A stretch of DNA of 64,000 bases from an uncultured Acidobacteriota bacterium (GCA_963837495.1 CAWINF010000001.1:841843-905842), one strand, 5' to 3'; positions 27,673 to 56,049 are shown, counted from the first letter of the stretch. Translations and numbers: made by a program. The notes: generated from the letters alone by a model not told the origin.

Positions 27673-27721
27673 TTTACGCCTCTGTGTCCGTCATCTGGTC
27701 AGACCAATCAGCTCGGCACAG

Positions 27722-27967
27722 TCAACCTGCCTTGCGGAGGGTCTCGTAGCGTTCGGCGAGGAAGTCGCGGTCGGGCTGAAGGTCCCGGCGAGTTGGGATG
27801 AGGATCCGGGCGCCCTGGAAGCCCTGGAGGCTGTGGAGGAGCATCGGTCCGTCCTTCTCCCGGAGGACGTCCTCCCGGATCTCGACGACCAGGTCCGGGC
27901 GTATGCCCAGGACTTGCCTTTCGAAGGCGGCGCCTTCTCTCGACGGAACACCCTTTCGGACGGGCAA
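27722..27967 (-). pseudogene. C-terminal ~80 aa fragment of an HNH endonuclease paralogue
   Basis: GIRPDLVVEIREDVLREKDGPMLLHSLQGFQGARILIPTRRDLQPDRDFLAERYETLRKAG aligns with the C-terminus of the 37175-38143 gene. Confidence 0.55.
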
Positions 27968-28539: not shown

Positions 28540-28600
28540 ATCCCGCCTTCTCGGAAGATCTCGCAGCGTTCGGCGAAGAAGTGGCGGTCGGCACGCCCAG
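28540..28600 (-). repeat. Third copy of the HNH-gene 3-prime end segment
   Basis: CCGCCTTCTCGGAAGATCTCGCAGCGTTCGGCGAAGAAGTGGCGGTCGG. Confidence 0.45.
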
Positions 28601-28755: not shown

Positions 28756-31700
28756 ATGGACGCCAAGGTTTTCTGGAACACGCGTGACTGGGCCGACGCG
28801 GTGGCTGCGATGCCCGTCCGCGGGCCCTTGCCGTGCCGCATGGTGCTGGTCTCGCGGGAGCGGGTGGCCCACGTCCTCCGGCGCGAGCTCATCCAAATTG
28901 GCCGGACCGACGCGCTTGCCGGGACGCGCTTCGTGGCGACGCCGTTTGCTGCAGCGGAAGTTCTGCGCGGAGCCGAGACGGCTTTTCAGCCCGGGGAAGA
29001 AACTCTGCGAGCAGCACGGCTTCTGGCTTTGTTCCGGTCCGAACTGAGACTCGTTCACTTCACTCTCGATCTGCTGCGCTCGAAGCCGGGATGGGACGAG
29101 GCCTTCGCCTCAACCATCTCCGATCTCGAGGGAGCCGACCTCCGTCCCTCAGATCTCTCGATGGAATCGGAACGCCTTCGGGACGTCGCCGCGATCTGGA
29201 GCGCGCTCGAGGAGTCCGCCGGCAACTCCTGGACGATCCAGCGGATCTATCTCGAAGCGGCGGCGCAATTGGAGAGAGATCCCGCGGCCTGGCCATTCCA
29301 GGGAGCAACTCTCGCTTCCGCCAGCATTGGCCTGACAGTCGCCGAAGCACGGTTCCTGCGCTCCATCCCGCGGCTGACCGTCGGGCTTCTGGCGGCGAGA
29401 CCGCCGCGCGAGCGCCATCTCGACCGCGTGGAGGCGCTGCTCGGAAAAGAGGCCGGCGACGCGCTGCGATCCGCATCCGTGCCCCGCGCACAGGCGACCG
29501 AGCGAGACTTGCTCGCCTCTTACCTCTTCGAGCCGCCGGTTGTCCTGGCCGATCCAGCGCGTCCGCGAAGCAAGGGACCCGATGGCACGGTCGAGCTCGA
29601 GGAGCATTCGGGCATCGAAGCGGAGCTCGAGGCGACGGCAGACTGGGTCGCTCGACAAGTCGGCGCCGGCATCCCGCTCGAGGAGATCGCCGTCCTGCTC
29701 CCGACTCTCGATTCGGTCGCGGGTCTCGTCGTAGAGCGCATAGCAAGGCTGCCTTTCAGCGAAGGCGGACTGCCGGTGCACGCCGCGGGAGGCTCGCCTC
29801 TGAAAGGAACTTCCGCCGGCGCGCGAGCGCTGGCTGTCGTGCGCGCGCTGCGGACCCACCTGACACCTGAATCGCTGTCGGAAGTTCTACCCGTCCTGCG
29901 CTCGCTTGCGCCCGACGGTCGCCACCTCTCTCACGGCGGCGCGATGGATCTGGCCTGGTCGCTTGGCACGGTCGGCGGAAACCCCGCGCGGCCCGAGGGC
30001 GCCCTGGAGTGGGCGGTTCGCGCCGTCGAGAAGCAGGCGGAGCTCACCAGACAGCTCGCCCTCGCCAAACCTGATGAGGAAGATGGAGACGGCGCAAGCT
30101 TCGGCCGCAGGACCTGGGACAACGAGCGCCTGCTGGAGAACCTCGTCGGGATCGCTCCCGCGCTGGACGCCCTGGCCGGCCTCGCGCGACAAACGATCGA
30201 CGGCAAGACTCTCGCAGAACTCTGGCCCTCGTTTCGTCTCTTTCTGCAGGAGTGGCTGCTCCAGCCGCCGCAGGGCCGCGGCGTTCACGATCTTCTCGAC
30301 GATCGGCTCGCACGGCTGACTTCGGATTCCGCGTGCGGATCGCTCACGGGAGATGACGCGCTGAGGGTCATCGAAGAAACGATCGACTCCCTTCGCGTTC
30401 CCCTCGGCCGATTCGGCGAGCCCGCTGTCTACGTCGGATCAATTCACCAGGCCGTCGGTTTGAGCTTCCGCTCGGTACGCATCATCGGACTCGCCGAAGG
30501 CCAGTTCCCGTTCGTGCCGCGCGAGGATCCGGTCGTTCCCGATTCTCTGCGCTCAACTTTGAGATCCGCCGGGCCATCCGGCAAGGTCGCGTGGCCGGCA
30601 ACCGCCGCGGACCGCGCTCTCGACGGCCTCCATGCTCTCGATATCGTGATTCGTAGCGCGCGGGAGCATGTCGCCCTCTCCGCCCCGCGAACCGACCTGG
30701 AACGCTCCCAGCGCGAGCCCTCGTCCGTGTTCCTGGAGGTTGCCGCCGCGCTTGGCCGTCCCAACAGGGCCACCGGAGAGGCCGGCCGCACGATCCCCAA
30801 CAGCATCGCTCTCGAGCGGGACGGCTTCGAACCGGCGCGCGCAGCCGCCTCCGCGTTTCGCCGGGACAAGCCGCTCGGCGAAGCCGCGTGGCAGGACGGC
30901 GTTTCCAGGGGAGAGCTCGGCGTGCCGCCACACTGGCGCGGCATCCTGTCCCTGGACCTTGCGCGCATAGAGAGCCTGAAATCGTCTGGAGACGCCGGCG
31001 CGATGGACGGGATGCTCGGCATCGCCGACCTGGCCATGCTGCTCCCCGGCCTGACCGCCGAGTACCCGACCTCCCTTTCCGTGCTCAAGACGCTTCTGAC
31101 CTGTCCGCACCAGTTCCTCCTCGCGAATCTCCTCAAGTTCGACGAGCCGAGCGGCGCCCCGCCTCAGCGGGAAATCGGTCAGCCCTATTACGGCAACCTC
31201 TTTCATGCCGTGGCGGCGCGCTTTTCCACACAGCACGGCCTTTCTTTTTGCGCGCGCGAGGGCGCGATTGCCGATTGGCTCGCTCGCGCGGACGCTGTTT
31301 CGGATTCGGCATTCGATGAATTCCTGAAGGAGTACCCCCTCGTCGGGAATGCCGTCCGCGCGCAGCAAAGGGATCGCCTGCGCCGCGATCTGCGGGAGCT
31401 GCTCGAATACGAGTGGAAGAAGCCGAAGCCGCCCCGCCTCGTTGCCTCCGAACGCGGATTTGGCCGGCCCACCCCGGTCGAGCTGAAGATCAACGGCCAC
31501 TCGTTGTTTCTGCGGGGTCGGATCGATCGGATCGATGTCGAGGGCGGGACGACGATCGTCACGGACTTCAAGACTGGGAAGCCCTCTCCCCGCATCGGCG
31601 ACGATGAGAACCCGGATGCCTTGCTCGATCTGCAAATCGCGGCCTACGCGCTCGTAACCCGGTCCCTCGCCGCCGAATGGAAGGTTCCGAAAAGAGTTTC

Positions 31701-31998
31701 AGGCACCTACGTGTATGTCGGGCGCACCGCGGTAACCGAGCGGTCCTTCCGACAGGACTTTGACAAGAACCTGGAGCCGAAGGCGTGGCAATGGCTGGCG
31801 ATCGCCGCCGGGCTCCTCTCGCAAAGGGACTTCCCTCGAACCACCGACCACAAAGACTGCAAGTACTGCCGGTTCAAGCCGGTCTGCGGCGACGACATCC
31901 ACGAGCGCGCCGCGGAGGTCCTCGACGGCGCGGACGGGCCGCTCGGCGACTTCCGGCTGCTGAAGGCGGGTCCCGTTCAAGAAGAAGAGGAAGAGTGA
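28756..31998 (+). CDS. AddB-like subunit: inactivated-helicase N-terminus + PD-(D/E)XK nuclease with C-terminal Cys cluster
   Basis: 1080 aa; C-terminal DFKTGK...CKYCRFKPVCG; gene order nuclease-subunit then helicase-nuclease as in addBA. Confidence 0.65.
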   Translation: MDAKVFWNTRDWADAVAAMPVRGPLPCRMVLVSRERVAHVLRRELIQIGRTDALAGTRFVATPFAAAEVLRGAETAFQPGEETLRAARLLALFRSELRLVHFTLDLLRSKPGWDEAFASTISDLEGADLRPSDLSMESERLRDVAAIWSALEESAGNSWTIQRIYLEAAAQLERDPAAWPFQGATLASASIGLTVAEARFLRSIPRLTVGLLAARPPRERHLDRVEALLGKEAGDALRSASVPRAQATERDLLASYLFEPPVVLADPARPRSKGPDGTVELEEHSGIEAELEATADWVARQVGAGIPLEEIAVLLPTLDSVAGLVVERIARLPFSEGGLPVHAAGGSPLKGTSAGARALAVVRALRTHLTPESLSEVLPVLRSLAPDGRHLSHGGAMDLAWSLGTVGGNPARPEGALEWAVRAVEKQAELTRQLALAKPDEEDGDGASFGRRTWDNERLLENLVGIAPALDALAGLARQTIDGKTLAELWPSFRLFLQEWLLQPPQGRGVHDLLDDRLARLTSDSACGSLTGDDALRVIEETIDSLRVPLGRFGEPAVYVGSIHQAVGLSFRSVRIIGLAEGQFPFVPREDPVVPDSLRSTLRSAGPSGKVAWPATAADRALDGLHALDIVIRSAREHVALSAPRTDLERSQREPSSVFLEVAAALGRPNRATGEAGRTIPNSIALERDGFEPARAAASAFRRDKPLGEAAWQDGVSRGELGVPPHWRGILSLDLARIESLKSSGDAGAMDGMLGIADLAMLLPGLTAEYPTSLSVLKTLLTCPHQFLLANLLKFDEPSGAPPQREIGQPYYGNLFHAVAARFSTQHGLSFCAREGAIADWLARADAVSDSAFDEFLKEYPLVGNAVRAQQRDRLRRDLRELLEYEWKKPKPPRLVASERGFGRPTPVELKINGHSLFLRGRIDRIDVEGGTTIVTDFKTGKPSPRIGDDENPDALLDLQIAAYALVTRSLAAEWKVPKRVSGTYVYVGRTAVTERSFRQDFDKNLEPKAWQWLAIAAGLLSQRDFPRTTDHKDCKYCRFKPVCGDDIHERAAEVLDGADGPLGDFRLLKAGPVQEEEEE

Positions 31999-34900
31999 CC
32001 GTGGCGGCGAAGACGAAAAAGGCGCCGCCGGACCAGGCTCAACGCGATGCGGCCATCAAGGAGCGCGACCGCAACGTGATCGTGAATGCCGGCGCGGGCA
32101 CCGGGAAGACTTCCATCCTCGTGAGCCGCTTCGTCGAGATGGTCGCCCCGGCGAAATCTGCCGCGCCCGCGGTTGCAATCCCCCGCATCGCAGCCATCAC
32201 GTTCACGCGGAAGGCCGCCGGAGAACTGCGCTTTCGCATCCGGGAACGTCTGCTGGCCGAGCTGGCAAGTGTCAAGCCAGATTCTCCCCGCGAAGGCCAG
32301 CTCCGCGAAGCCCTGGCTGGTTTCGACACGGCCTACGTAGGAACGATTCACAGCTTCGCCGATCGCCTTTTGCGTCTTCAGCCTGTCAAAGCGTCGCTCA
32401 GCCCCTCGTACGAAATCGCCGAGGACGATGAGGCGCTGGTCCACGAAACGTTCCAGGTGCTTCTGCAGGCCGTCGAGAGCGAAACTCTCGCCGCCGAGCT
32501 CGAGGGCGACGGCGCGGCAGCGCGGGCCGATGAGGCCACGCGAACCATCCTGGACGCCATTGCCGCCGGTTTGCAGGCGGAGACCCGTGAGACAGAGTTT
32601 TGGGTGTATTCCGGGCTGGACGCCCTCGTAAAAGGCTTTCTCCGGCAGCGCGATGTGCCGCCGCCGTTCGACGCTCCTCCCGCCTCGATTGATTTCGGAG
32701 CCTTCCGCAAAGCCGCGGACGAATTCATACGCGAAGCCGCTCCGGTTATCGGCGGATCCATCAGCGCGGCATGGATCAAACAAACGGCGGAGATCCTCGC
32801 CGGCGTCCGAAACCTGGAAGACCCGATCGCCCTGTATCGCAGCCTCGGCCTGCAACTGCGCCGCAGGTCGCCCAAGAGTGACGCCCAGAAAGGCAGAGAC
32901 TTCGGCGGCGATGCCGCGGCCTGGCGGGTGTGGAAGCTGTACAGCAAGGCTGACGGGAAGCTTCGCCCGACCCCGCTCCGCAATGACCTGCGGGCGCCGC
33001 TCGAGCGCTGGATGGCCAGCCGCCTCGTCCGTCTCTTTCCAGTCGTGAAGGCTCTCTACGAAAAGGTTAAAGCGCGCCACAGGCAACTCGACCAGCTCGA
33101 CCTGCTTTTCAAGTTGCGTACCCTCCTCAAAGACAACCGCGAAGTGCGGGCCGAGTTCCAGGGAATGTTCGATCACATCTTCGTGGACGAATTCCAGGAT
33201 ACGGATCCGCTCCAGGCGGAGATCGTGCTCTTCCTCTGCGAGCGGGGACCCGTCGCGGCGCGTTGGGAGGACGTCCGTCTCGCCGGCGGGAAGCTGACGG
33301 TGGTCGGCGACGCCAAACAGTCCATCTACCGGTTCCGCCGGGCGGACGTGGCGATGTACGACCGCGTCCTGCGCGTCATCGCGAAGACGCCGCTCCTCGA
33401 GGTCAGGCTCTCCGCGAACTTCCGGAGCGTTCCTCCTCTCATCGACTGGTTCAACGACCGGTTTGCTCGCATCCTCAGAGAATCGCAAGACGCCTTCGAC
33501 CCCGTGACCGGGCGGGTCTTCCACCAGCCGCTCGCGAGGGGTCGCGACGTCCCCGGCCCGCCATCCGTCCATGTCCTGAATCTCGCCTTTTCGGACGGCG
33601 AGAAGCACAACGCTGATGACTACCGCTCACTCGAAGGCCGGGCGCTGGCCCGGTACCTGCGCTGGTTGACCGAAACGGATGACGTCCGGATCCTCGACCC
33701 GTTCGACGAGCGCCTCCGGAAGGTTCGATACGGCGACATCGCGGTTCTGGCGGCCTCGACGTGGAGCCTTCCTCATCTGTTCCAACCGCTGGACGAGGAG
33801 GGCATCCCCTACGCATCGCGCGGCGGCGTCCTGTTCCTCAAAGACCCGCTCCACCGGCAGTTCCTGCTCGGTCTCCGAGCCATCGCCGACCGCGATGACG
33901 GCGTCGCCATGGCGGCTTTGCTCCGGCCCCCTTTCTTCGCCGTAGATCCCGCGGACCTCCTCCGCGAGCAAGTCGCGACCCGCGCCGGAGAAGCGCCCGC
34001 CGGAGACTCCGCCCTCCGCGCCCGGGAAGCTCGAGACCTGGTTGTTGACCTGCGCCGGCGCAGATCCGGCCGCCCTCCCGGCGCGACCGCGCGGGACCTG
34101 CTGGAGCGCACGGCGTTCGCGCGCAACGTGGCTTCCGGGCCGAACGGCACGCAGCGCCTCGCGCGGCTGCGGGAGCTTTGCCTGCTCCTGGAGCAGCTCG
34201 CCGCCGATGAAGGGCTCGACTACGACGCCGCGACGTCCCTCATGCGGGAGTGGGTGGATGATCCTGTCCAGCTCGACCCGCCACATCCCGTCGGAGCCGA
34301 AGCGGTTCAAATCCTGACCGTCCATCAGGCCAAAGGCCTCGAGTTTCCCGTCGTCGTCATCTGGGACGGGCAGGGCAAATGGGCCCCGCCCGCCGGGAAC
34401 GCCCCCTGGCGCATGGAGCGTGATGGCCGAGGCTGGATGATGGATCTCGCCGGCCTGACGTGGGAGGAGCCCGCCGGTCTCGGCATCCGCAAGACGGAGC
34501 TCGACTACCAGAGACAGGAGCGTGAGCGCGTGGCCTACGTCGCCGCCACCCGCGCCCGCGACCTGCTGGTCATTCCGAAAGCCGGCGACCTCAAGCCAGG
34601 GACTTACGTGTGCAGCGATCTTCTCGCTGAAGCGCCCTCCCATCTTGTCAACGAGCTCGAGCCCTACACTGACGGCCACGAGCCCGCCTGGGCCACGCAG
34701 AAACCCGCAACCACGCAGCTCCCCAAAGATGGAGGAACTGTCGAACAGGCAACCGACGCCTGGTGGACAGCCGCCTCTGCGGAATCCGCCCGCCCCCGCT
34801 TCCGCCCCGCGAGTGTCTCCGGCGAGACTCAATCCACCCCCGTGGACGACACCGAGGAAGTGGTGGATCCCGCCCTCGCGAAACCACGGGAAGGCCGCTT

Positions 34901-35372
34901 GGGCCCTCTGTTCGGCACGGCAGTTCACCACGCAATCGGCCTCATCCTTCGTGACAGCACCCTGACACCCGAGGAAGCCGCCCGCCGGGCCGCCAGGCGA
35001 TTCGGCCTCGAGGACCACCTCCCCGAGTGCATCGCCGACGTCACCCGAGCCCTCGACTCCCTCCGAACAGAGGGCCTCGCCCGCCCCCTCGGCCCCGACC
35101 TCCAGGTCGAATACTCTGTCGCCGCGGAATGGGAAGGCGGCCAACTCCTGGGCGGCTACATCGACCTCGTCAGCGCGACCGACGGCCGCCTCGACGTACT
35201 CGACTTCAAGACCGACGCCCCACCGCAAGGGCCGGTGGAGCAGACCTACCCGGAGTACGCGGTCCAGGTGCAAACCTACGGCCGCCTTCTGGAGACAACC
35301 GCCGCGCTCGGAGCCCATGAACTCCGCTGCGGCCTTCTCTTCACGGCCGACGGAGGAATCCGATGGGTCTAA
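31995..35372 (+). CDS. AddA-like UvrD/Rep-family helicase with C-terminal nuclease domain; GTG start overlaps upstream stop (GTGA)
   Basis: NAGAGTGKTSILVSRF (Walker A), ITFTRKAAGELRFRI, VDEFQDTDPLQ, TVVGDAKQSIYRFRRAD, TVHQAKGLEFPVVV, C-terminal DFKTD. Confidence 0.75.
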   Translation: MTVAAKTKKAPPDQAQRDAAIKERDRNVIVNAGAGTGKTSILVSRFVEMVAPAKSAAPAVAIPRIAAITFTRKAAGELRFRIRERLLAELASVKPDSPREGQLREALAGFDTAYVGTIHSFADRLLRLQPVKASLSPSYEIAEDDEALVHETFQVLLQAVESETLAAELEGDGAAARADEATRTILDAIAAGLQAETRETEFWVYSGLDALVKGFLRQRDVPPPFDAPPASIDFGAFRKAADEFIREAAPVIGGSISAAWIKQTAEILAGVRNLEDPIALYRSLGLQLRRRSPKSDAQKGRDFGGDAAAWRVWKLYSKADGKLRPTPLRNDLRAPLERWMASRLVRLFPVVKALYEKVKARHRQLDQLDLLFKLRTLLKDNREVRAEFQGMFDHIFVDEFQDTDPLQAEIVLFLCERGPVAARWEDVRLAGGKLTVVGDAKQSIYRFRRADVAMYDRVLRVIAKTPLLEVRLSANFRSVPPLIDWFNDRFARILRESQDAFDPVTGRVFHQPLARGRDVPGPPSVHVLNLAFSDGEKHNADDYRSLEGRALARYLRWLTETDDVRILDPFDERLRKVRYGDIAVLAASTWSLPHLFQPLDEEGIPYASRGGVLFLKDPLHRQFLLGLRAIADRDDGVAMAALLRPPFFAVDPADLLREQVATRAGEAPAGDSALRAREARDLVVDLRRRRSGRPPGATARDLLERTAFARNVASGPNGTQRLARLRELCLLLEQLAADEGLDYDAATSLMREWVDDPVQLDPPHPVGAEAVQILTVHQAKGLEFPVVVIWDGQGKWAPPAGNAPWRMERDGRGWMMDLAGLTWEEPAGLGIRKTELDYQRQERERVAYVAATRARDLLVIPKAGDLKPGTYVCSDLLAEAPSHLVNELEPYTDGHEPAWATQKPATTQLPKDGGTVEQATDAWWTAASAESARPRFRPASVSGETQSTPVDDTEEVVDPALAKPREGRLGPLFGTAVHHAIGLILRDSTLTPEEAARRAARRFGLEDHLPECIADVTRALDSLRTEGLARPLGPDLQVEYSVAAEWEGGQLLGGYIDLVSATDGRLDVLDFKTDAPPQGPVEQTYPEYAVQVQTYGRLLETTAALGAHELRCGLLFTADGGIRWV

Positions 35373-35399
35373 TGGTGAGCTTCCTGTAAAGTCGGGCCC

Positions 35400-36464
35400 G
35401 TGACGGCCGATCTGAATCCTGTGGACGAGCTTCAGTCCAGATTCGGAATCACATGGGAACAAATCAACGCCGCGCGGAAACGCTCTTCGACTGTTCGGGC
35501 CGAACTAACTAAGACTCTGCGGGCGGAGGACTCGGAGGCGGCTTGCATCGTTGGGTACGGGTCTCTCGCCAGGCAAGAGTGGACATCCGGAAGCGATGTC
35601 GATTGGACATTATTGGTGGACGGCCAGGCAGATCCCCAGCACGCACAGACGGTGAACCGAGTTGAGGGCGCCTTGACTGCCGGCAGCCACAAGCATCCGG
35701 GCCGCACTGGCACATTCGCAAGCCTTTCATCCAGCCATGACCTTGTGCACAAGATCGGCGGCGCAGAGGACACGAACCAGAACACGACGCGGCGGATTCT
35801 GCTGCTGCTCGAATCGATTCCTCTCGGTAGATCCGACGCCTACGATCGAGTGAAGCGCAACATCCTTCATCGGTACATCCTGGAAGACCGCGGTCTTCGG
35901 TTCGGAACAACAGATTTCGTTCCCCGCTTTCTGCTGAACGACATCGCTCGATACTGGCGAACGATGGCGGTCGATTTCGCCCAGAAACAGCGTGATCGAG
36001 GGGGACACGGTTCAGGATTGAGGAATGCAAAACTTCGGCTGTCTCGAAAACTCATTTTCGCCTCGGGTCTTCTGAACTGCCTGCGATGCCATGTTGCCCC
36101 CGAGCTTCATACCGTTCGATCGAACCGGCGTTCTCTGGAGTCCGCAGCACTGCTCGTTGTGCACTTTGAGGAGTACCTGAAGATGACGCCCCTCGAGAAC
36201 CTCGCGAAGGCAGTGGTTGACTTTTCTGCCAGTGCGGAAGTTGCCAGGGCGCTTTTTGGAGCGTACGATACTTTTCTCGGCGTTCTCAACAACGATACCA
36301 AGCGGACTCACTTGGATGATCTCGAACCCGAAGCTTTCGAAGGCGACGCTATTTTCGGCGAGGTTCTCGATCTCAGCCACGAATTTCAGAATGGTCTCGA
36401 CGGCTTGTTCTTCGCCACCGATGCAACGTTGACCAGGCTTACCCAGAAATACGGGGTGTTCTGA
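35400..36464 (+). CDS. Nucleotidyltransferase-fold protein (minimal NTase motif GS-x9-DxD) with large helical C-terminal domain, resembling GlnD/GlnE/DUF294-type substrate-binding region; GTG start
   Basis: IVGYGSLARQEWTSGSDVDWTLLV; C-terminal GGHGSGLRNAKLRLSRKLIFASGLL resembles GlnE G-G-G-x-R-[DN]-[IA]-[EK]-[FL]. Confidence 0.55.
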   Translation: MTADLNPVDELQSRFGITWEQINAARKRSSTVRAELTKTLRAEDSEAACIVGYGSLARQEWTSGSDVDWTLLVDGQADPQHAQTVNRVEGALTAGSHKHPGRTGTFASLSSSHDLVHKIGGAEDTNQNTTRRILLLLESIPLGRSDAYDRVKRNILHRYILEDRGLRFGTTDFVPRFLLNDIARYWRTMAVDFAQKQRDRGGHGSGLRNAKLRLSRKLIFASGLLNCLRCHVAPELHTVRSNRRSLESAALLVVHFEEYLKMTPLENLAKAVVDFSASAEVARALFGAYDTFLGVLNNDTKRTHLDDLEPEAFEGDAIFGEVLDLSHEFQNGLDGLFFATDATLTRLTQKYGVF

Positions 36465-37186
36465 TGAGGGTCATCGGCTTTTCGACGGGCGCGGTTGCAA
36501 AAGGCGACTTTCGACGTGCGCTCGGTCTCATCACCGCTGCAAGCGTCGAAGCGGTAGAGCTTTCTGCCCTGCGTCTATCTGAGCTCCAACCGCTCCTTCG
36601 TGCCTTGCCTACCCTGGACCTATCGTCCTTTGGCTATATTTCCGTGCACGCCCCGAGTTCCTTCGCTGAGAGCGACGAAGACGGCGTCGTCAGAGACCTC
36701 GAAGAGTTCACGAGAAGAGACTGGAACGTCATTGTCCACCCGAACGTGATTTATCACCCAGCGGTCTGGCGGAACTTGGGTAGGCGTCTTCTGATTGAGA
36801 ATATGGACCGCCGAAAAGCAGTTGGGCGAACCGCTCCCGAGCTTCGAGGGCTGCTGAACTCGCTTCCGGAGGCCGGGCTCTGCCTCGATCTCGGCCACGC
36901 CCGTCAGGTAGATCCGACGATGACTGAGGCGCTAATGCTGCTCAGGTGGTTTGGGTCTCGGGTTCGCCAGCTTCACGTCAGCGAGGTCAACGAGCGAAGT
37001 CATCATGACCCCATCAGCGCGGGTTCGATAGACGCCTTTCGGTCGATTTCCGATCTCCTGCCCTCGGACGTCCCAATCATCCTTGAGCCCCTCATCGACG
37101 AAGGGCAGAGCGAAATCTCTGTCGAGATAGAGAAGGCGGCAGCGGCCCTCCAGCCCGAAACCTCCCGCGTGGCCTCAGCCGTCTAG
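36464..37186 (+). CDS. Xylose-isomerase-like TIM-barrel protein (sugar-phosphate isomerase/epimerase / AP-endonuclease family 2-like); TGATG overlap with the NTase gene
   Basis: LCLDLGHA and LHVSEVNERSHHDPISAGSIDF resemble the metal-binding motifs of the family. Confidence 0.45.
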   Translation: MRVIGFSTGAVAKGDFRRALGLITAASVEAVELSALRLSELQPLLRALPTLDLSSFGYISVHAPSSFAESDEDGVVRDLEEFTRRDWNVIVHPNVIYHPAVWRNLGRRLLIENMDRRKAVGRTAPELRGLLNSLPEAGLCLDLGHARQVDPTMTEALMLLRWFGSRVRQLHVSEVNERSHHDPISAGSIDAFRSISDLLPSDVPIILEPLIDEGQSEISVEIEKAAAALQPETSRVASAV

Positions 37187-38143
37187 CTCGACGTCATCCC
37201 GCCTTCCTGAAGATTTCGTAGCGCTCGGCCAGGAAGTCGCGGTCGGGCTGGAGGTCTCGGCGGGTCGGGATGAGGATTCGGGAGAGCTCTGGAAGCCCTG
37301 GAGACCGTGGAGGAGCATCGGGCCGTCCTTTTCTCGGAGGATGTCTTGTCGGATCTCGACGATAAGGTCCGGGCGCACACCCAGGATTTGGCCGTCGAAG
37401 GCGGCGTGGTGGAGCTTGCAGAGAGCCAGGCCGTTCGAGACCGTCGGGTCGCCCTTGGGATGGCGGTCCGGGAGGATGTGGGCGGCGTCGAGCAGCTCGA
37501 AGTGCCTGAGGCGGCAGACGGCGCAGCGCTCCTGATACGCCCGGATCACCCGAACCCGGAACCCCGCCTGATGGAGGCGTTGCTGCGTCACTCGCGTGAC
37601 GTAGGCCCGCCTAGCATCGGAGAGGTCGGAGACGAGATGCGCCGTATCCATGACCGCAGCGTCCTTCAGGTCCACGGCCACTGAAAATGCCAGCGACTCG
37701 GGATGATCCCGGACGATGAACACCGGCCAGACCGGCAGGTACTCACCGGGAACTACACCGTAGAGATAGATCAGCGGAACTGCACGCCGCATCGCCAGAC
37801 GCAGCCCCGCGTTGTCCCGATGCCTCGGATCCGTCCCGCGGTACCGGTAGAGAAGGAGACCGTTCTCGTCCATCTCGTCTTCATAGGGCCGTTGTCGCCC
37901 TTCAATCACCGGCGTGGTGTTGAAGGTTAGAGGCATCTCGGGCAAAACGGCTGGCTTGAAGATGCCCTGCGGATTGATGAGCGGAACCCTCTGCCCGTCG
38001 AACCAGAAACCCTCGGCCAGGATTTTGCGCGGGAGCACCTCACCCCGAAGCTCCGTCTGAGTTCGGAGAAACTCGAACGCCGCGATCCTGACCCGCTGGT
38101 CAAACTCCCGCGCCGCCGTCCATGGATCCTGATCCTCGGTCAC
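37175..38143 (-). CDS. HNH endonuclease (HNH_2-type) with ~200-aa N-terminal domain; apparent +2 indel shifts the last ~30 codons relative to the 27722-27967 paralogue fragment
   Basis: CAVCRL...LDAAHILP...NGLALCKLHHAAFD; C-terminus LHGLQGFQSSPESS... vs paralogue LHSLQGFQGARILIPTRRDLQPDRDFLAERYE. The correct-frame RILIPTRRDLQPDRDFLAERYEIFRKAG is present in DNA at 37199-37290. Confidence 0.65.
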   Translation of the reverse strand: MTEDQDPWTAAREFDQRVRIAAFEFLRTQTELRGEVLPRKILAEGFWFDGQRVPLINPQGIFKPAVLPEMPLTFNTTPVIEGRQRPYEDEMDENGLLLYRYRGTDPRHRDNAGLRLAMRRAVPLIYLYGVVPGEYLPVWPVFIVRDHPESLAFSVAVDLKDAAVMDTAHLVSDLSDARRAYVTRVTQQRLHQAGFRVRVIRAYQERCAVCRLRHFELLDAAHILPDRHPKGDPTVSNGLALCKLHHAAFDGQILGVRPDLIVEIRQDILREKDGPMLLHGLQGFQSSPESSSRPAETSSPTATSWPSATKSSGRRDDVELDG

Positions 38144-41826: not shown

Positions 41827-41830
<4 letters not shown>

Positions 41831-42435
41831 GGCGAGAAGAGGTTGATGAACTTCACTTCATCGCGCCGATCGAAAACGTTGCTTCGATCCTCACGATGGG
41901 CATTCTTTCGAACGAGCGGGCTCGAAGCATCTCGCATCTCTCGATAGCCATGGAGGAGGTTCAAGTGCGGCGCGACATGAAGACGGTCCCCGGGGGTCGA
42001 CCACTTCACGAGTACGCCAATCTGTACTTCACCGCTCGTAACCCGATGATGTTCAAGAAGCAGGCGATCCACGCGGAGACTTGCGTTCTACGTGTCGACC
42101 CATGCGTCCTCGATCTGTCAGGCGTCGTCGTAACCGACAGGAACGCATCACGCGGATGGGCTCGCTTTCGCCCCCCCGCAGAAGGACTCGGAGCCCTGAA
42201 ACACGAAGAGATCTTCGCGGATGATTGGCGCCATCCCGGAGATCCGGTTGCCTACGACCGCCATAAGGGCCTTAAGTGCGCCGAAGTTCTTGTGCCAGAC
42301 CGGGTTGAGCCAAGTCTGATTCGCGGAGCGTACGTTTCCTCCGACGAGGCATTTCGACGTCTGTCCGATGCTTGTCCGGCGCTCGACGTTCGGAAGTACC
42401 CTCACCTTTTCTTCTTAGAAGGTGGCCTCGAATGA
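41827..42435 (+). CDS. darT: DarT-like ssDNA ADP-ribosyltransferase toxin (DUF4433); ATGA overlap with the helicase stop
   Basis: ELHFIAPIENVASILTMGILSN...VPGGRPLHEYANLYFTARNPMMFK matches the DarT N-terminal consensus. Confidence 0.65.
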
Positions 42436-43562
42436 CCGTTCAGACTCTTGTGGGTAATCTTTTCGACTCCTCTGCGCAGACGCTTGTCAACACCGTAAAC
42501 ACGGTTGGGGTGATGGGCAAAGGAATCGCCCTTGAGTTCAGGAAGCGGTTCCCGGAGATGCACCAGGATTATGTGGCACGCTGCGCCGCCGGTAAAATCC
42601 ACCTCGGCGAGCCATACCTCTTCAAGGCGCTGCTGCCTCCGTGGATCCTCAACTTCCCGACGAAGGAGCACTGGCGGTCAGTCTCGCGGGTGGCCGACAT
42701 CGTGCGCGGATTGGAGTACCTCGAAAGGAATTACAAGGCCTGGGGAATCACATCACTGGCCGTTCCGCCTCTCGGCTGCGGTCTCGGGCAGCTCGAATGG
42801 CGGGTCGTTGGGCCTACACTCTTTCGTCACCTAAGCCGTCTCGATATTCCGGTTGAACTCTTCGCGCCGCATGGCACACCAGCCGAACAGCTCGACCCGC
42901 TGTTTTTGGGCATCGTCCCTCAGGCGCAAGCAGCCACTACGAACGGTCCCGAACAGGCTCGTATAGATGCAGCGTCCGTAGCTCTCGCGGAGATTCTCGC
43001 CCGGATTGCGAGGGAGCCCTACCATCGCCCGGTGGGTCGAACGATTTTTCAGAAGATTGCTTTCTTCGCGACGGAAGAGGGGATCCCAACGCGGCTTGAC
43101 TTTGCGCCCGAGAGTTATGGGCCGTTCTCCACAAGCGTTAAGCCCCTGCTCACGAGGCTCGTCAACAATGGTCTGCTCGTGGAGACCAAGCTCGGGCGGA
43201 TGTTCCGCCTGGATCCAGGTCCCACTTTCACAGATGCCTGCAAGACATTCGCGGACGCGATTTCGCAGTGGGAACCTGCAATCGAACGGATCGCGGACCT
43301 CTTTTTGAGAATGACTACTGAGCAGGCTGAAATCGCAGCGACCGTCTTTTACGCGGCCCGCCATCTGGTCGGCAATGGCGAGACGCCTCCGACGGAGCGC
43401 GACGTTCTTTCCGCGGTAAAGCAATGGAAGCGCAGGCGGAGTCCCCAGCTACGTGACGAGGATTTGGCTCTGGCAATCCGGAACCTTAACGTTCTTGGCT
43501 GGTTAAACACGCGGGCCAGCACGGATCTCCCGCTTCCTGAGGCCGCTTCTATTGGAGCATAA
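42432..43562 (+). CDS. darG: DarG-like macrodomain antitoxin; ATGA overlap with darT
   Basis: N-terminal macrodomain VNTVNTVGVMGKGIALEFRKRFP; ~240-aa C-terminal domain. Confidence 0.65.
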   Translation: MTVQTLVGNLFDSSAQTLVNTVNTVGVMGKGIALEFRKRFPEMHQDYVARCAAGKIHLGEPYLFKALLPPWILNFPTKEHWRSVSRVADIVRGLEYLERNYKAWGITSLAVPPLGCGLGQLEWRVVGPTLFRHLSRLDIPVELFAPHGTPAEQLDPLFLGIVPQAQAATTNGPEQARIDAASVALAEILARIAREPYHRPVGRTIFQKIAFFATEEGIPTRLDFAPESYGPFSTSVKPLLTRLVNNGLLVETKLGRMFRLDPGPTFTDACKTFADAISQWEPAIERIADLFLRMTTEQAEIAATVFYAARHLVGNGETPPTERDVLSAVKQWKRRRSPQLRDEDLALAIRNLNVLGWLNTRASTDLPLPEAASIGA

Positions 43563-43616: not shown

Positions 43617-44414
43617 GTGGTGAAAAAGGCGGTGCCGCCAGACCCCCGTCCAGCGCAGCTCTCGGTCGGCGAGATTCGCACCGCCATACCGAAGCTCGAG
43701 CGCCGCCTTGCAGAGGTGGAAGCCCTTGAACCCGATGGTATCCAAGGACGACCTGACCCGGCCTTTAGGGCAGTTGAAGACAAGATCGACAGTACGTTGG
43801 TCGAGGTTTTCGGACCTGACACGCTCGACTATAGGCGATTCACCGTCGGGCCTCTGTACAAGGGAGCCCTCTACAGGGGCGGCATGCCCATTGCGGAGGT
43901 CCGCGAGGGGTATCGGCGAGGGAAGGATCAGGCGGCTGGGAAACTCAAAACAGCAATCGAGATTCTGAGAGAAAAGCTCTTGGCTGTCCTGGGCACAGCT
44001 AACTCCGGAGCCGCGACGCCCCCGTCGCTCGATGCGCTCGATCTCGATCCGCAACTGAGAAATCGCGTTGCCCCGCTCTTTAGGGATGGTCATTATGCCA
44101 ACGCGATCGAGGACGCTTGCAAGGTTCTCGACCTCCTCGTCAAGTTGCGCAGCGGGCGAGAAGATCTGTCCGGGACGGAGTTAATGCAGGCAGTCTTCTC
44201 CGAGAGAAACCCGGTGCTTAGGTTCAACGACGGTGTGATGGAGACCGACAGAAGTGAGCAAAAGGGCATGATGTTCCTGTACTCGGGTACGATGTTGGCC
44301 CTGCGCAACCCCCGAGCCCACGGCTTTCAACCGGACGACGCCGCGACAGCCATCCAAGTTATCTCCATCATTAATTTCCTTATCGGTGCTCTGGGTAGGA
44401 CGACGAAAGCCTAG
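43617..44414 (+). CDS. HEPN-domain protein (TIGR02391-like); GTG start
   Basis: C-terminal FRDGHYANAIEDACKVLDLLV...MMFLYSGTMLALRNPRAHG (Rx4H motif). Confidence 0.5.
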   Translation: MVKKAVPPDPRPAQLSVGEIRTAIPKLERRLAEVEALEPDGIQGRPDPAFRAVEDKIDSTLVEVFGPDTLDYRRFTVGPLYKGALYRGGMPIAEVREGYRRGKDQAAGKLKTAIEILREKLLAVLGTANSGAATPPSLDALDLDPQLRNRVAPLFRDGHYANAIEDACKVLDLLVKLRSGREDLSGTELMQAVFSERNPVLRFNDGVMETDRSEQKGMMFLYSGTMLALRNPRAHGFQPDDAATAIQVISIINFLIGALGRTTKA

Positions 44415-44419: not shown

Positions 44420-47296
44420 ATGGCATCGAAGAAGCTCATCGAGGTCGCCCTGCCCCTGCCCGAGATCAACGATGCCTCGGCTTACGACAAGAGACCTGGA
44501 ATCGGGCCTCACCCTAAGGGAATCCACCACTGGTGGGCGCGCCTCCCGCTGCCAACGGCGCGGGCGGTGCTCTTTGCGTCGGTGGTGGACGACCCGAGCG
44601 GCCATCCGGAGAAGTGGCTGACGGAAGAAGCGCAGGACGCCGAGCGCGAGCGGCTTTTCGAAATCATACGCCGCATGATGGGTAAGAAGCTGCATACGCA
44701 TCCGGAGGTGTACGCCGAAGCGCGTGCCGAGATGCTCGATGACACCGGTGGAAAGCTTCCCGTCGCGTTCGACCCGTTCGCTGGTGGCGGCTCGATCCCG
44801 CTCGAGGCCAATCGTCTCGGCTTCGAGCCCCATGCCGGCGATCTCAACCCCGTAGCGGTGCTCCTCAACAAGTGCAGTCTCGAGATCGCCCCTCACTGGG
44901 CCAGCCGAGCACCAGTCAATCCGGAGGACCGCGCGCAGATCGGCGGAACAGAATCATGGCCCGGAACGCGTGGGCTTGCGGCCGACGTTCGTTACTACGG
45001 TAGGCTCATCCAAGACCGGGCGCGGCAGAAGATCGGGCACCTCTACCCGAAAGTCCGATTGCCGAGGGCGGAAGGGGGCGGGGAAGCAAACGTGATCGCC
45101 TGGATTTGGGCGCGCACCGTGGCGAGCCCCGATCCGTCGGCGCGTGGTGCCCACGTACCGCTAGTCAGTACTTTCTGGCTCTCAGCTAAGAAGGGAATGG
45201 AGGCGCGGCTCGAACCGATCGTGGACAGGGACGCGCGCATCTGGCGGTTCGCTGTGCGCCTGGGGATTCCCACCGAATGCACCGGGAAGCGCCCAGGGCA
45301 GAAGTGGAAGGATCACGCCAAAGAGTGCATCGCGTGCGCGGCGGTGGTATTTGGAACGAAGACAGGAAGAGCGCAGTTTCGCTGCCTCCTGACAGGCGCG
45401 CCGATCTCCGACGATCACATCAAGGCCGAGGGAGTTGCAGGCCGGCTCGGCAGTGTCTTGCTTGCGATCGTGGCGGAGGGCAAACGGGGACGCGTGTATC
45501 TCGATAGCTCCGATGCGCAAGTCGAGGCAGCAAGTGTCACGGCTCCCGTCGGGCAGGTGGAAGAACCGCTGGCCGAAGATCCCCGGAACATCTGGTGCGT
45601 CGGATATGGTCTCGATCGCTTCCGCCGGCTCTTTACCCCTCGCCAACTCACAGCAATGGTGACACTGAGTGACCTGGTGAAGGCGATCGCGGCGGACGTG
45701 AGGCGCGACGCGAAGGCGACGCTCGCCTCCGACGAGGTCCAGGCTTACGGCCTCGCGGTTACGACGTTTCTGGCGCTGGCGGTAGACCGGTGCGCAGACT
45801 TCAATAACACCTTATGTCGGTGGGATCAAAGCGCCGCCGGTCAGAGAGTAAAGAACCTATTCGGGCGGCAGGCGATCCCCATGTTGTGGGATTTCGCCGA
45901 GGCCAATACCCTCGGAGAGAAGTCTGTCTGCTGGGCGAACGCAGTAGATGTCACCGCCGACGCGATCGGCGCGCTCGCGTCTTCTGAGCGAATGCGAGGA
46001 ACCGCCCGCCAGATCGACGCTGCCACAGGGGCCAATGGGCTCAAGAACCTTCTCGTTAGCACCGATCCTCCCTACTACGACAACATCAGCTACGCTGGGC
46101 TCTCGGACTTCTTCTACGTCTGGCTCCGGCGCACGATCGGTGACCTTTACCCGGATCTCTTCAGCACAGTGCTTGTGCCGAAGGTGCCGGAACTCACGGC
46201 CGCGCCCGAACGCTTCGGCGGCGACAAGCAAAAGGCCAAGGAGCACTTCGAATCTGGCTTTCGCAAGGCCTTCACCGCGCTGCGCGAGAAGATGGATCCG
46301 CGATTTCCTCTTACCGTTTACTACGCCTTCAAGCAGGCCGACGAGGAAGGCGGAGGCGACGACGAGGATGCCGAGGGCGTTCCGCGCGTGGACCTTACCA
46401 CTGGCTGGGAGACGCTCCTCGAGGCGCTCATCGCGAGCGGCTTCCAGATCACGGCTACGTGGCCCGTGCGTGCGTCGCAGGCCTGGCGCATGCGCGCGAT
46501 GGACTCCAACGCCCTGGCCTCGTACATCGTGCTCGCCTGTCGCCCACGCAACGATGACGTCCCGCAGCCCGACCGCCGCTCGTTCGTTGCCGAACTCAAG
46601 CGGGAGTTGCCCATTGCGCTACGCCATCTTCAACAGGGCAACATCTCGCCGGTCGACTTTGCTCAGGCTGCCATTGGGCCGGGGATGGCAATCTACTCGC
46701 GATACAGTCAAATACTCGAGAGCAGTGGCAAAGCGATGAAAGTTCGTGGGGCGCTCTCGCTCATCAACCAAACTCTCACGGAGGTGCTGTCGGAACAGGA
46801 TGACGACTTCGACGCCGACACTCGGTGGGCGCTGGCGTGGTTCGATCAATCGGGATTCGACGCCGGAGAGTACGGCGCTGCAGAGACGCTCTCCAAGGCC
46901 AAGAATACAAGCGTCCAGGGCATGAAGGACGCCGGCATTCTCGACAAGAAGTCTCCGGGCGGAAAAGTTCGTCTGCTCAAACCGAGCGAACTGCGCGAGG
47001 ACTGGGACCCAGGCACCGACCCGCGCCTCACGGCATGGGAAGTCGTTCACCACCTGATCCGTGCTCTGGAGGAGGGCGGCGAGGCTGCGGCGGCAAAACT
47101 GGTCGCCAAACTCGGGAGCAAGGCCGAAGTTGCCCGCGAACTTGCCTACCGGCTCTACGCGATCTGCGAGCGGAAGAAACGCGCCGCCGAAGCGCTTTCC
47201 TACAATGCACTCGTCCAGAGCTGGCCCGAGATCACTCGTCTCGCTCGCGAGAGCCGCAAATCGAAGCCAGAGCAAGCCGCAATGTTCGGAGAGTAA
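44420..47296 (+). CDS. DUF1156-family N6-adenine DNA methyltransferase with inserted Zn ribbon
   Basis: N-terminal KLIEVALPLPEINDASAYDKRPGIGPHPKGIHHWWARLPL; FDPFAGGGS (motif I), LVSTDPPYYDNISY (motif IV, DPPY), CIACAA...C Zn ribbon. Confidence 0.7.
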   Translation: MASKKLIEVALPLPEINDASAYDKRPGIGPHPKGIHHWWARLPLPTARAVLFASVVDDPSGHPEKWLTEEAQDAERERLFEIIRRMMGKKLHTHPEVYAEARAEMLDDTGGKLPVAFDPFAGGGSIPLEANRLGFEPHAGDLNPVAVLLNKCSLEIAPHWASRAPVNPEDRAQIGGTESWPGTRGLAADVRYYGRLIQDRARQKIGHLYPKVRLPRAEGGGEANVIAWIWARTVASPDPSARGAHVPLVSTFWLSAKKGMEARLEPIVDRDARIWRFAVRLGIPTECTGKRPGQKWKDHAKECIACAAVVFGTKTGRAQFRCLLTGAPISDDHIKAEGVAGRLGSVLLAIVAEGKRGRVYLDSSDAQVEAASVTAPVGQVEEPLAEDPRNIWCVGYGLDRFRRLFTPRQLTAMVTLSDLVKAIAADVRRDAKATLASDEVQAYGLAVTTFLALAVDRCADFNNTLCRWDQSAAGQRVKNLFGRQAIPMLWDFAEANTLGEKSVCWANAVDVTADAIGALASSERMRGTARQIDAATGANGLKNLLVSTDPPYYDNISYAGLSDFFYVWLRRTIGDLYPDLFSTVLVPKVPELTAAPERFGGDKQKAKEHFESGFRKAFTALREKMDPRFPLTVYYAFKQADEEGGGDDEDAEGVPRVDLTTGWETLLEALIASGFQITATWPVRASQAWRMRAMDSNALASYIVLACRPRNDDVPQPDRRSFVAELKRELPIALRHLQQGNISPVDFAQAAIGPGMAIYSRYSQILESSGKAMKVRGALSLINQTLTEVLSEQDDDFDADTRWALAWFDQSGFDAGEYGAAETLSKAKNTSVQGMKDAGILDKKSPGGKVRLLKPSELREDWDPGTDPRLTAWEVVHHLIRALEEGGEAAAAKLVAKLGSKAEVARELAYRLYAICERKKRAAEALSYNALVQSWPEITRLARESRKSKPEQAAMFGE

Positions 47297-50200: not shown

Positions 50201-50677
50201 TTCGGCTACGCCGACAGCTTCGACGAGGCGACCGGCCGATACCGAGGCCTCCAAGTCGGCCGAAACGTCTCCATCTCGGACGAGGACTCTCACGGTCTAC
50301 TCGTCAAGCCCGAAGTTGCCGCTCGACAGCTAGCCCAGGAAACCGCCGCCTCTTCCTACCCCGCAGGCGCCGCCCCCACAGCTCTTCAAGCCAACGGTCC
50401 CGCAGCGACGGCGGCACCCCTCACCGCTCCCGCACCTCGCCTCCTCACGCGCTTCCACGGCTCCGTCCACCTTGACGCCTCCCGCCTAGGCCGAGACGCG
50501 GGCAGAATCGCTGAAGAAATCGTCCAACACCTAGCGGCCTTGGTAGGCTCCGACGTCGAAGTGACGTTGGAAATCCACGCCGCCGTCCCCACCGGCACCC
50601 CCGACCAGGTAGTCCGCACCGTATCCGAAAACTGCCGCACCTTGAGATTCACAGACTTTGGGTTTGAGGAAGATTAG
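47300..50677 (+). CDS. DUF499-family large P-loop ATPase
   Basis: NFGGGKTHSMLALYHLF Walker A; LILIDEWVAY Walker B; 1125 aa. Confidence 0.6.
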   Translation: MAITNQERVGKAMELLKDGLAPFVERELKAHHAQSWFEEAKAAVSEMQTSFLGSASAPKWDVGSLLVVMWNQWNLVFRKTLGQAERTLVSELRDARKRWAHQDAISGDDAYRTLDSASRLLTAVSAPQSDELEKMKMELLRVRFDEQVRSEKRKSAGAAIESAAAGTLKPWREVVTPHKDVASGRYQQAEFAADLWQVHLGEGTDEYRDPVEFFRRTYLTESLKGLLVGAVQRMAGHGGDPVVQLQTNFGGGKTHSMLALYHLFSKATLSQLPGAGAILNEAGVSKLPSVNRVVLVGNKISPGNPVTKPDGTVVRTLWGELAWQLGFAAGGAKEAKKAFQRVAPDDERATSPGDALRELMNEYGPCLILIDEWVAYARQLHDQSDLPAGSFETHFSFAQVLTESAKAAKKCLLVISLPASDTTGSPHAVADDVEVGGERGRAALDRLRNAVGRIEASWRPASAEESFEIVRRRLFEPLVEKAQFVARDTVARAFYDLYRTQHQEFPPECRDSDYENRLKAAYPIHPEVFDRLYNDWSTLVKFQRTRGVLRLMAAVIHSLWQKGDRNPLILPANISIDDPRVQFELTRYLSDNWVPVIEKDVDGPNVLPLRLDGEVPNLGKYAACRRVARTIYLGSAPTATAAHRGIEDRRIKLGCVMPGESPAVFGDALRRLAGAATYLYQDGPRYWYSTQPTVTKLAEDRAEQLKRDPDKVVKELESRISEDVTEDRREKTSRKGAFSRVHPLPHSGQDVPDDMDARLVILDIDHPYGKEPGNPAEAQANAILESRGNTPRLFRNTLVFLAVDQARLQDLDEAARRYLAWESILAEKVTLDLSPHQVKQAETQRTSADGAVTARLPEAYQWLLIPTQSTPQSPVKWQAVRLTGQDALAARASKKLRGDDSLVTGLGATVLRKYLDEVPLWRGDHVDIRQLGEDFARYLYLPRIKDTSVLIGAIRSGLNLITWEKDSFGYADSFDEATGRYRGLQVGRNVSISDEDSHGLLVKPEVAARQLAQETAASSYPAGAAPTALQANGPAATAAPLTAPAPRLLTRFHGSVHLDASRLGRDAGRIAEEIVQHLAALVGSDVEVTLEIHAAVPTGTPDQVVRTVSENCRTLRFTDFGFEED

Positions 50678-55892: not shown

Positions 55893-56049
55893 CGTGACTA
55901 CAATTATAGTCTCTAGATCCAGCGCTGCCAACCCGTGCAAATAGAGAGATCCGAGGCGGGGGAAGAACTGGGGTCGGGCTTGAATATCGGGTGTTGAGCC
56001 GAAACAATTCCGACTCCACCTTAGCCGTTGGGTGGTGTTTCGGGTCGAT

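Follow-up and report, generated by a model that had tools for sequence, protein, structure and literature searches.

A translationally coupled nucleotidyltransferase and TIM-barrel gene pair in a defence island of an uncultured Acidobacteriota bacterium belongs to the catalogued family PDC-M70

In the genome of an uncultured Acidobacteriota bacterium, a 64,000-nucleotide (nt) stretch (GCA_963837495.1, CAWINF010000001.1:841843-905842), referred to here as the window, carries two adjacent genes on its plus strand. Gene A (35400-36464, GTG start, 354 amino acids (aa)) encodes a nucleotidyltransferase (NTase) of the Pol-beta superfamily with a large helical C-terminal domain, and gene B (36464-37186, plus strand, ATG start, 240 aa) encodes a xylose-isomerase-like TIM barrel of the AP_endonuc_2 type, a putative metal-dependent phosphodiesterase. 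Both open reading frames (ORFs) are intact. The TGA stop codon of A (36462-36464) and the ATG of B (36464-36466) have one base in common within a TGATG sequence (36462-36466, plus strand), and CTGATGAGG at 36461-36469 spans the junction. This overlap couples A and B translationally. A first-pass annotation of the window had located both ORFs and the stop/ATG overlap exactly and had proposed the coupling, which is kept in most loci: the start of B equals the last codon of A + 3 in most of 80 genome loci and in 52 of the 61 metagenome loci where the A match reaches the last codons.

The pair was matched end to end by two PADLOC models. A aligned with PDC-M70A at an E-value of 1.7e-132 (440 bits, residues 1-354 on model positions 1-355), and B with PDC-M70B at 2.5e-94 (residues 1-233 on model positions 1-231 of 238). 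Therefore, the pair is already catalogued as a defence candidate, and since the full PDC-M70 composition is found in the window (A then B, adjacent, same strand), it is a further member of this catalogued, uncharacterised family. PDC-M70 is the cassette CAS_00217 (FAM_01459>>FAM_02243), listed with the number 32; it was derived by guilt-by-embedding, and its catalogue entry carries neither assigned domains nor a mechanism (Payne et al., bioRxiv 10.1101/2024.01.29.577857). PDC-M70 is named nowhere in the literature that we searched, in which a defence pair of an NTase and a xylose-isomerase-like protein is likewise undescribed. The first-pass view of an undescribed system thus has to be divided: the pair itself stands in PADLOC-DB as PDC-M70, whereas a mechanism or phenotype of the family is indeed undescribed.

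Homologues of A and B number in the thousands (3053 for A; 732 representatives remain at 50% identity and E ≤ 1e-30). Scanned with an A alignment, at least 583 species-representative genomes proved to carry relatives, mostly genomes of Acidobacteriota and Myxococcota (all sampled Sorangium, and Chondromyces) and also of Gemmatimonadota, Planctomycetota, Lentisphaeria and Rhodospirillales. When plasmids were searched by tblastn with A, A-B pairs were detected on Mesorhizobium and Sinorhizobium megaplasmids.

Linkage of the two genes was assessed from both sides. In all of the 80 best-matching genome loci kept for A, B follows directly downstream on the same strand; conversely, among the 57 metagenome loci with enough sequence 5' of B, 53 have A immediately before it. 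The pair is hence conserved as neighbours in other genomes, the point on which the first-pass annotation had staked its proposal, and the full-length hidden Markov model (HMM) matches, the thousands of homologues and the two-way adjacency place it beyond chance. Two in-frame fusions were also found, namely a 600-aa ORF of Acidobacteriaceae bacterium KBS 96 (L064, 9998-11797) with the junction ...TYGLF-YL-MRPIGFSTG, and a second one of 633 aa (P0367). Clustering of all neighbouring ORFs revealed no other conserved neighbour outside the synteny of ~16 Sorangium genomes.

The sequence before A points to its own transcription start. A promoter-like element of the extended -10 type, TGTAAAGT (35385-35392, plus strand), lies 7 nt 5' of the GTG, its function being assigned from the sequence; a simple sigma-70 scan gave no full -35/-10 match there. 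Among 116 non-redundant loci, the hexamer pattern TA[GAT][AG][GA]T is over-represented within 30 nt before the A start, with 23 in this bin as compared with 9 in the adjoining bin and mostly 0-5 in the other upstream bins. In many unrelated loci the -10-like hexamer TAAAGT, TAGAGT or TAGAAT stands 5-12 nt before the A start codon. Except for this hexamer, the upstream regions of A are kept in close relatives only; in a search for a conserved RNA or small ORF 5' of A, Rfam gave no match. The -10-like element suggests that A and B may be transcribed as a separate, often leaderless operon. The G+C content of the module (57%) also differs from that of the adjoining AddAB-like genes (65-70%). Based on the linkage, the fusions, the lack of any other conserved neighbour, the distinct G+C content and this element of its own, A-B is a self-contained, horizontally mobile two-gene module.

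The NTase signature and the regulatory-type helical domain that the first-pass annotation had seen in A are both borne out. The active-site motif G52-Y-G-S55...S65-D66-V-D68 is encoded at 35553-35603 and the third carboxylate, E138, at 35811-35813 (plus strand), and the peptide GYGSLARQEWTSGSDVDW corresponds to aa 52-69. G54, S65, D66, D68 and E138 are invariant in 114 A homologues as well as in the sister clade described below. An AlphaFold2 (AF2) model with a predicted local distance difference test score (pLDDT) of 92.9 comprises an N-terminal helix pair, the alpha/beta core of an NTase and a helical domain of ~210 aa. The latter (aa ~146-354, 35835-36461, plus strand) was delimited by the secondary structure of the model, invariant columns and its GlnE/DrrA-like fold; it holds the peptide GGHGSGLRNAKL (aa 201-212) and the invariant motifs PRFLLNDxxRYWRTxxVDFxxK and LRNxKLRxSRK. 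The best Foldseek matches in the Protein Data Bank (PDB) were GlnE 1v4a (5.5e-4), DrrA 6yx5 (6.3e-4) and the C-terminal domain of GlnE, all with probability 1.00 and template modelling (TM) scores of 0.34-0.44, followed by the aminoglycoside nucleotidyltransferases ANT(4'), AAD(9) and AadA, Hailong HalB and MntA. Sub-threshold matches to Pfam DUF294 (18.6 bits, cut-off 21), Pfam GlnE (12.5, cut-off 24) and NCBIfam GlnD (15.3, cut-off 631) agree with this fold. A PDB profile search found no sequence relatives of solved structure beyond the NTase core, and matches of A to designer pentatricopeptide repeat proteins were discarded as repeat artefacts. These results show an intact NTase of the Pol-beta type in A, folded in two domains like GlnE and DrrA.

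B was modelled as an 8-stranded barrel (AF2, pLDDT 94.4) and passes the Pfam AP_endonuc_2 cut-off (32.4 bits against 31.1). Foldseek agrees with this assignment, and the xylose-isomerase-like barrel with metal-site motifs is as first proposed. The peptides quoted for A and B in the first-pass annotation are all present, among them LCLDLGHA (aa 139-146) and HVSEVNERSHHDPISAGSIDAF of B, apart from a trivial slip in which SIDAF had been written as SIDF. Structural matches of B include UlaE, putative sugar isomerases, MbnB, YcjR and the endonuclease IV (Endo IV) 5zhz of M. tuberculosis (E 4e-6, TM 0.65), the best being sugar epimerases/isomerases. The matches span many enzymes, so the fold leaves the chemistry unfixed. 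Family assignment by NCBIfam (E ≤ 0.001) is more one-sided: among 120 B family members, 117 matched the CbiR phosphodiesterase model and 2 matched Endo IV (best E 2.6e-5), and none matched an isomerase or epimerase model. B itself reaches 26.6 bits with the CbiR equivalog, far under the cut-off of 105, and its resemblance to Endo IV is weak in a PDB profile search (E 0.25 to 5zhz). No cobamide genes occur in any A-B locus examined, and B has no conserved sugar-metabolism neighbour.

Compared with the fold, the putative metal ligands of B are more telling. H62, H92, E112, D142, H145, H171, (S179), H181/D182 and E208 (36647-37087, plus strand) lie at the C-terminal ends of strands 3-8 and are invariant or at least 90% conserved in 120 homologues. 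E112, D142, H145, H171, H181 and E208 align with E145, D179, H182, H216, H231 and E261, six of the nine metal ligands of E. coli Nfo; the position of Nfo D229 is an invariant S179 in B, with D182 adjoining H181. Judged by strand order only, H62 and H92 at the ends of strands 3 and 4 would be the counterparts of Nfo H69 and H109. Isomerases of this fold carry an E-D-H-E metal set, beyond which B has the extra invariant histidines H62, H92, H145 and H181. B is thus an intact TIM barrel of the AP_endonuc_2 type, and its putative metal ligands resemble those of endonuclease IV. CbiR is an experimentally proven metal-dependent phosphodiesterase of the AP endonuclease 2 superfamily (PMC7733943); in view of this and of its own sequence, we read B as a putative multi-metal phosphodiesterase. 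Neither A nor B is an ordinary housekeeping gene of the GlnE/GlnD or sugar-isomerase kind. A LIDxGQS motif of B was also weighed, either as the mark of B proteins coupled to A or as the place of nucleotidylylation, and was dropped as it is absent in 101 of 142 A-coupled B proteins.

A sister clade of A throws further light on the pair. Its members are 26-30% identical to A, match PDC-M70A with E-values of 1e-48 to 1e-54 and keep all motifs end to end, including the helical C-terminal domain, which aligns over its whole length. The clade is common in Enterobacterales, Pseudomonas and others. In every inspected locus, from four lineages, the sister NTase is preceded by an HD-domain protein of ~340 aa. 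These HD proteins are mutually homologous, show the dNTPase-type pattern H...HD...HxxE...D and have dGTP triphosphohydrolases as best database matches. One such pair makes up the only annotated gene content besides rop of the 4.5-kb ColE1-type E. coli plasmid pISHS7_5 (L176); another lies in a P2-like prophage of K. pneumoniae, between tail-fibre and gpU/tape-measure (tail) genes (L177-L179, 4954-7011); and those in a Pseudomonas island next to integrases and in Aliarcobacter (L180/L181) both come with an extra His_Phos_1 phosphatase gene. A further variant was found on a plasmid of Mycobacterium sp. SMC-8 (L173, 4860-6349), where an NTase 30% identical to A is followed by a convergent HIT-domain gene overlapping it by 4 nt, the two lying between an OLD/Gabija-like ATPase and a type I restriction-modification (R-M) system. 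The NTase family thus keeps its whole architecture while the hydrolase partner differs.

The sister loci recall the Clover system. In Clover, CloA is an HD-domain dGTPase that dTTP activates, and its NTase partner CloB synthesises p3diT, a dinucleotide by which CloA is inhibited; ~650 CloB homologues were grouped by their differing adjacent effector proteins (PMC12265719). The sister HD-then-NTase pair measures ~2.06 kb, compared with the 2.2 kb of the cloned Clover fragments. By architecture, gene order, operon size and host range, with CloB compared by its description, we infer that the sister clade would correspond to Clover, and its loci are probably Clover-like systems. No Clover model is present in NCBIfam. 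As far as the searched literature shows, the link of PDC-M70 to dNTPase-coupled (Clover-like) NTases and the assignment of B as a phosphodiesterase are both unpublished.

The genes flanking the pair in the window agree with the first-pass annotation. Upstream lie an AddB-like PD-(D/E)XK protein (PDDEXK_1, 28756-31998) and an AddA-like UvrD/PD-(D/E)XK protein (31785-35372), whose scores fall far under the NCBIfam AddA/AddB/RecB equivalog cut-offs (e.g. 189 bits against 708). As listed, the AddA ORF begins 214 nt before the end of AddB, and its actual start therefore probably lies near 31990. The two genes may represent a divergent island-borne helicase-nuclease rather than a housekeeping AddAB. 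Downstream and outside the module, a convergent HNH_2 endonuclease gene (37175-38143, minus strand, Pfam HNH_2 3.5e-9) has its last ~40 codons frameshifted, with a 2-nt insertion near 37283. The duplicated HNH 3' ends described in the first-pass annotation are equally real: a direct repeat (27721-27932 against 37193-37406) is 84% identical over ~212 nt. Its upstream copy, on the minus strand at 27721-27932, is an HNH 3'-end remnant that keeps the ancestral frame to the stop codon after ...RILIPTRRDLQPDRDFLAERYETLRKAG and bounds the AddB-AddA-A-B segment; a third remnant of 40 nt lies at 28552-28591 (minus strand).

Comparison with the closest homologues, L083 and L169, clarifies how this arrangement may have arisen. 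In L169, whose A is 59% identical, the pair adjoins an HNH gene to which the window HNH is 86% identical, only up to residue ~287, and the C-terminus of the L169 protein is 77% identical to the 27721-27932 remnant. These remnants and a divergent cassette beside an 86% identical HNH gene make the HNH 3' end look like a site of recombination; the sequences indicate that cassettes may have been exchanged beside a conserved HNH gene. In both L083 and L169 the start of A is overlapped by a different RecB-like gene (PDDEXK_1 + RNase_H_2, ~500 aa). Taken with the HNH gene of L169, a nuclease companion therefore recurs in this sub-clade only. The AddAB-like pair and the HNH gene, which had been regarded as a possible part of the system, were rejected in that role: bar one weak HNH match, they are absent beside the pair in 80 genome and 80 metagenome loci, neither is a conserved partner, and the G+C content differs as given above. 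They are the local company of A-B.

The wider surroundings form a defence island. A complete Hma system (HmaA 38330-41830, HmaB 44420-47296, HmaC 47300-50677) follows the HNH gene, and between hmaA and hmaB are embedded DarT (41827-42435), DarG (42372-43562) and a Hypoth_Ymh/HEPN-like gene (43617-44414); DarTG inside Hma is a textbook nesting of defence genes within a defence system. Beyond it lie a HEC-05-like protein (50734-52866), an Nmad2 protein (52874-53542) overlapped by a uracil-DNA glycosylase (UDG)-superfamily protein (53539-54735), and a ParE-toxin-like ORF (55596-56441, minus strand). PIN genes are also present in the window. Upstream of the island are a PD-T4-6-like Ser/Thr kinase of 849 aa (19873-22422, plus strand, PADLOC PD-T4-6 models) and a transfer-messenger RNA (tmRNA) gene, ssrA (14768-15128, plus strand, tag ANNSNLALAA). 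An 848-aa kinase (Pkinase + PD40, 3501-6047) likewise lies a few kb upstream of the A-B pair of L167, whose A is 55% identical. The similar kinases hint that the window and L167 share an insertion region. Islands often integrate at tmRNA genes; the ORFs tested beside this one included no integrase.

Defence genes also accompany the pair elsewhere. These include a type III R-M system with a PIN/ParD pair (L083), DUF87 with an MmeI-like methyltransferase (L084), SIR2, ThiF and ImmA/IrrE genes (L175, as beside the pair of the Mesorhizobium megaplasmid) and, with the related NTase of the Mycobacterium plasmid, the type I R-M system of L173. Toxin-antitoxin (TA) modules are often near the pair (L083, L167, L172).

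The nucleotide-signalling or modification role that was first suggested for the pair is plausible, and by analogy the Clover-like NTase would sharpen it. We tentatively favour, with somewhat less than even confidence, a reading in which A is a regulatory transferase gating a phosphodiesterase effector B within a mobile anti-phage or conflict module. In its favour count the match to a catalogued candidate family, the linkage and autonomy of the pair, the fold and invariant catalytic residues of A, the phosphodiesterase relatives of B, the dNTPase-coupled sister clade, the precedent of Clover and the defence genes around the pair in the window and elsewhere. By analogy with Clover, A would turn NTPs or dNTPs into a small nucleotide signal by which B is gated; alternatively, A might nucleotidylylate B directly. 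Its control over B could be inhibitory, like that in Clover, or it could be activating. When an infection is sensed, the effector B would hydrolyse a phosphodiester bond, either of DNA or of a metabolite that contains a nucleotide. The NTase would then act as the unchanging regulator and the hydrolase as an exchangeable effector, a layout shared by other signalling defence systems. That stand-alone B genes occur in intact form suggests that B is not constitutively toxic. In its most specific form, which we regard as possible but doubtful, PDC-M70 would be an effector-swapped Clover relative, in which a CloB-family NTase gates an Endo IV/CbiR-like TIM barrel through a linear nucleotide signal or by direct nucleotidylylation.

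A number of observations weigh against this gating model. With respect to Clover, the window has the NTase gene first, the reverse of the Clover order; the inclusion of CloB in the A family would follow indirectly, by analogy in architecture, in the range of hosts, in gene sizes and in motif type; and the numbering does not agree, CloB having D71/D73 where a Salmonella sister protein has D62/D64. As to B, its fold cannot separate a phosphodiesterase from a sugar isomerase or an oxidase of the MNIO type, and the profile match to Nfo is statistically weak (hhalign E 0.069). Genetically, B stands alone in 4 of the 57 metagenome loci with all putative metal ligands kept, and A was never found without B in the 80 best loci. 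One of these solo B genes (L129) follows a 32-aa A remnant and so reflects A loss; the other solo loci hold no A remnant, and a common alternative partner 5' of the B gene, looked for in all 4, was not found. As the Clover effector is toxic alone and the solo B genes are intact, B fits a harmless or antidote partner at least equally well. As to a defence function, all 145 PDC systems, PDC-M70 included, are given as untested in the source paper (bioRxiv 10.1101/2024.01.29.577857). The synteny in ~16 Sorangium genomes is unusual for a defence system, and three pairs (L082, L170, L172) sit amid housekeeping genes. Finally, the phage collections IMG/VR and GenBank phages yielded relatives neither of A nor of the sister NTase, by which a phage origin of A, considered separately, is unsupported as well.

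The same evidence can be read in a different sense, that of a writer and an eraser in the manner of GlnD or DarTG, which we consider unlikely though not negligible. A would nucleotidylylate (AMPylate or UMPylate) a hydroxyl of a cellular or phage protein, or a nucleic-acid end, and the phosphodiesterase B would strip the adduct, so that toxicity or activity would reside in A, and B would act as the antidote that protects the host or resets the switch. In GlnD itself, an NTase and an HD phosphohydrolase are joined, and the latter undoes the modification by taking off UMP. The best structural matches of A, GlnE and DrrA, are protein AMPylators and its only NCBIfam match is the GlnD uridylyltransferase; moreover, the partners of the NTase family are all phosphoesterases, be they the TIM barrel, HD, the convergent HIT protein of the Mycobacterium plasmid or the added His_Phos_1. 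The HIT case, however, is a single convergent gene, and the HD partners of the sister clade are of the dNTPase type (HD...HxxE), a protein which in Clover is the effector and not an eraser. The genetics point to an antidote, in that A never occurs without B (80 of 80) while B persists alone with its ligands intact, although the absence of solo A rests on the 80 best-matching loci only. B being translated only after A was also counted in its favour, so that A would never be made without B, and DarTG, with the same logic, lies in the same island. Against this stands a target that is not identifiable.

Intact-ligand B genes that stand alone are, in turn, unexpected for an unneutralised toxin, as a type VII TA-like system would have it. 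There, B would be a toxic nuclease silenced by (oligo)AMPylation through A, as MntA does to HepT, and infection or loss of A would free it. The format of an NTase with a hydrolase, the coupling and the fusions do parallel HepT/MntA and fused MNT-HEPN proteins (PMC7641770, PMC13000451), MntA structures are among the fold matches of A, and TA modules are frequent near the pair, as listed above. Yet A, with its GlnE-like helical domain, is three times the size of an MNT antitoxin, B does not belong to the HEPN proteins (neither A nor B has a HEPN match), and LIDxGQS, the candidate acceptor motif, is the one missing from 101 of 142 A-coupled B proteins. We therefore rate this explanation as very improbable. 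Only slightly better placed, and still quite unlikely in our judgement, is a role outside defence, as an accessory metabolic or resistance pair in which A nucleotidylylates a small molecule (an antibiotic, sugar phosphate or cofactor) and B isomerises or hydrolyses it, or as a housekeeping switch in soil Acidobacteriota and Myxococcota. ANT(4'), AAD(9) and AadA among the fold matches of A, the sugar epimerases and isomerases as best fold matches of B, and the cofactor substrate of CbiR are in line with it; so are the several loci in housekeeping surroundings, the synteny in all sampled Sorangium and hosts that are soil bacteria rich in secondary metabolism. On the other side, no conserved metabolic or biosynthetic neighbour exists, no B member matches an NCBIfam isomerase or epimerase model, and H62, H92, H145 and H181 are invariant beyond the isomerase set. 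The pair also recurs in defence islands, and the sister clade is cargo of a P2-like prophage and a small plasmid.

PDC-M70, hitherto a catalogue number, now has a domain-level description and a conserved active-site map. If it is a defence system, a xylose-isomerase-like TIM-barrel phosphodiesterase would join the antiviral effectors. If the gating model is true, Clover-type logic, in which the nucleotide signals of an NTase restrain or trigger a hydrolase, would extend to a family widespread in soil Acidobacteriota and Myxococcota. Should the effector swap be right, the Endo IV/CbiR-like fold would be a new class of signal-controlled antiviral effector, and the CloB-type NTase would be a general module with interchangeable hydrolases (HD dNTPase, TIM-barrel phosphodiesterase, possibly HIT/His_Phos). 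If, instead, A writes and B erases, the pair would parallel the GlnD-type nucleotidylylation switch in a compact and mobile form.

Compared with the catalogued PDC-M70, the window pair is identical in composition but adjoins an Hma system instead of being embedded in one. With GlnE, GlnD and DrrA (SidM), A has in common the GS...DxD core followed by a helical domain (structures 1v4a, 3k7d and 6yx5, E ~5e-4 to 5e-3). However, A is a single NTase unit of 354 aa with no other Pfam domain: the second NTase domain of GlnE, the HD/ACT domains of GlnD, the guanine nucleotide exchange factor (GEF) and P4M domains of DrrA and the cyclic nucleoside monophosphate (cNMP)/CBS domains of DUF294 proteins are all missing, and nitrogen-regulation genes are absent near the window A. 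HepT/MntA and DarTG resemble the pair in logic only, as two-gene conflict modules of a modifying enzyme and a counteracting enzyme, MntA being a Pol-beta NTase. HepT/MntA combines a minimal MNT NTase of ~100-140 aa with a HEPN RNase, in contrast to the 354-aa A and the TIM-barrel B, and the macrodomain and the ADP-ribosyltransferase (ART) domain of DarTG are absent from A-B. B shares the TIM-barrel fold with Nfo and CbiR, and the six aligned ligands with Nfo, although it is shorter than Nfo (240 against 285 aa) and has Ser in place of Nfo D229. From Clover, the pair differs in that the partner is an AP_endonuc_2 TIM barrel, with no HD protein in or beside the pair. What it shares with Clover is the format, a two-gene operon of a Pol-beta NTase of ~330 aa and a metal-dependent hydrolase, and A, like the sister clade, agrees with the acidic active-site motif [D/E]h[D/E]...h[D/E]h through D66-V-D68 and L-E138-S.

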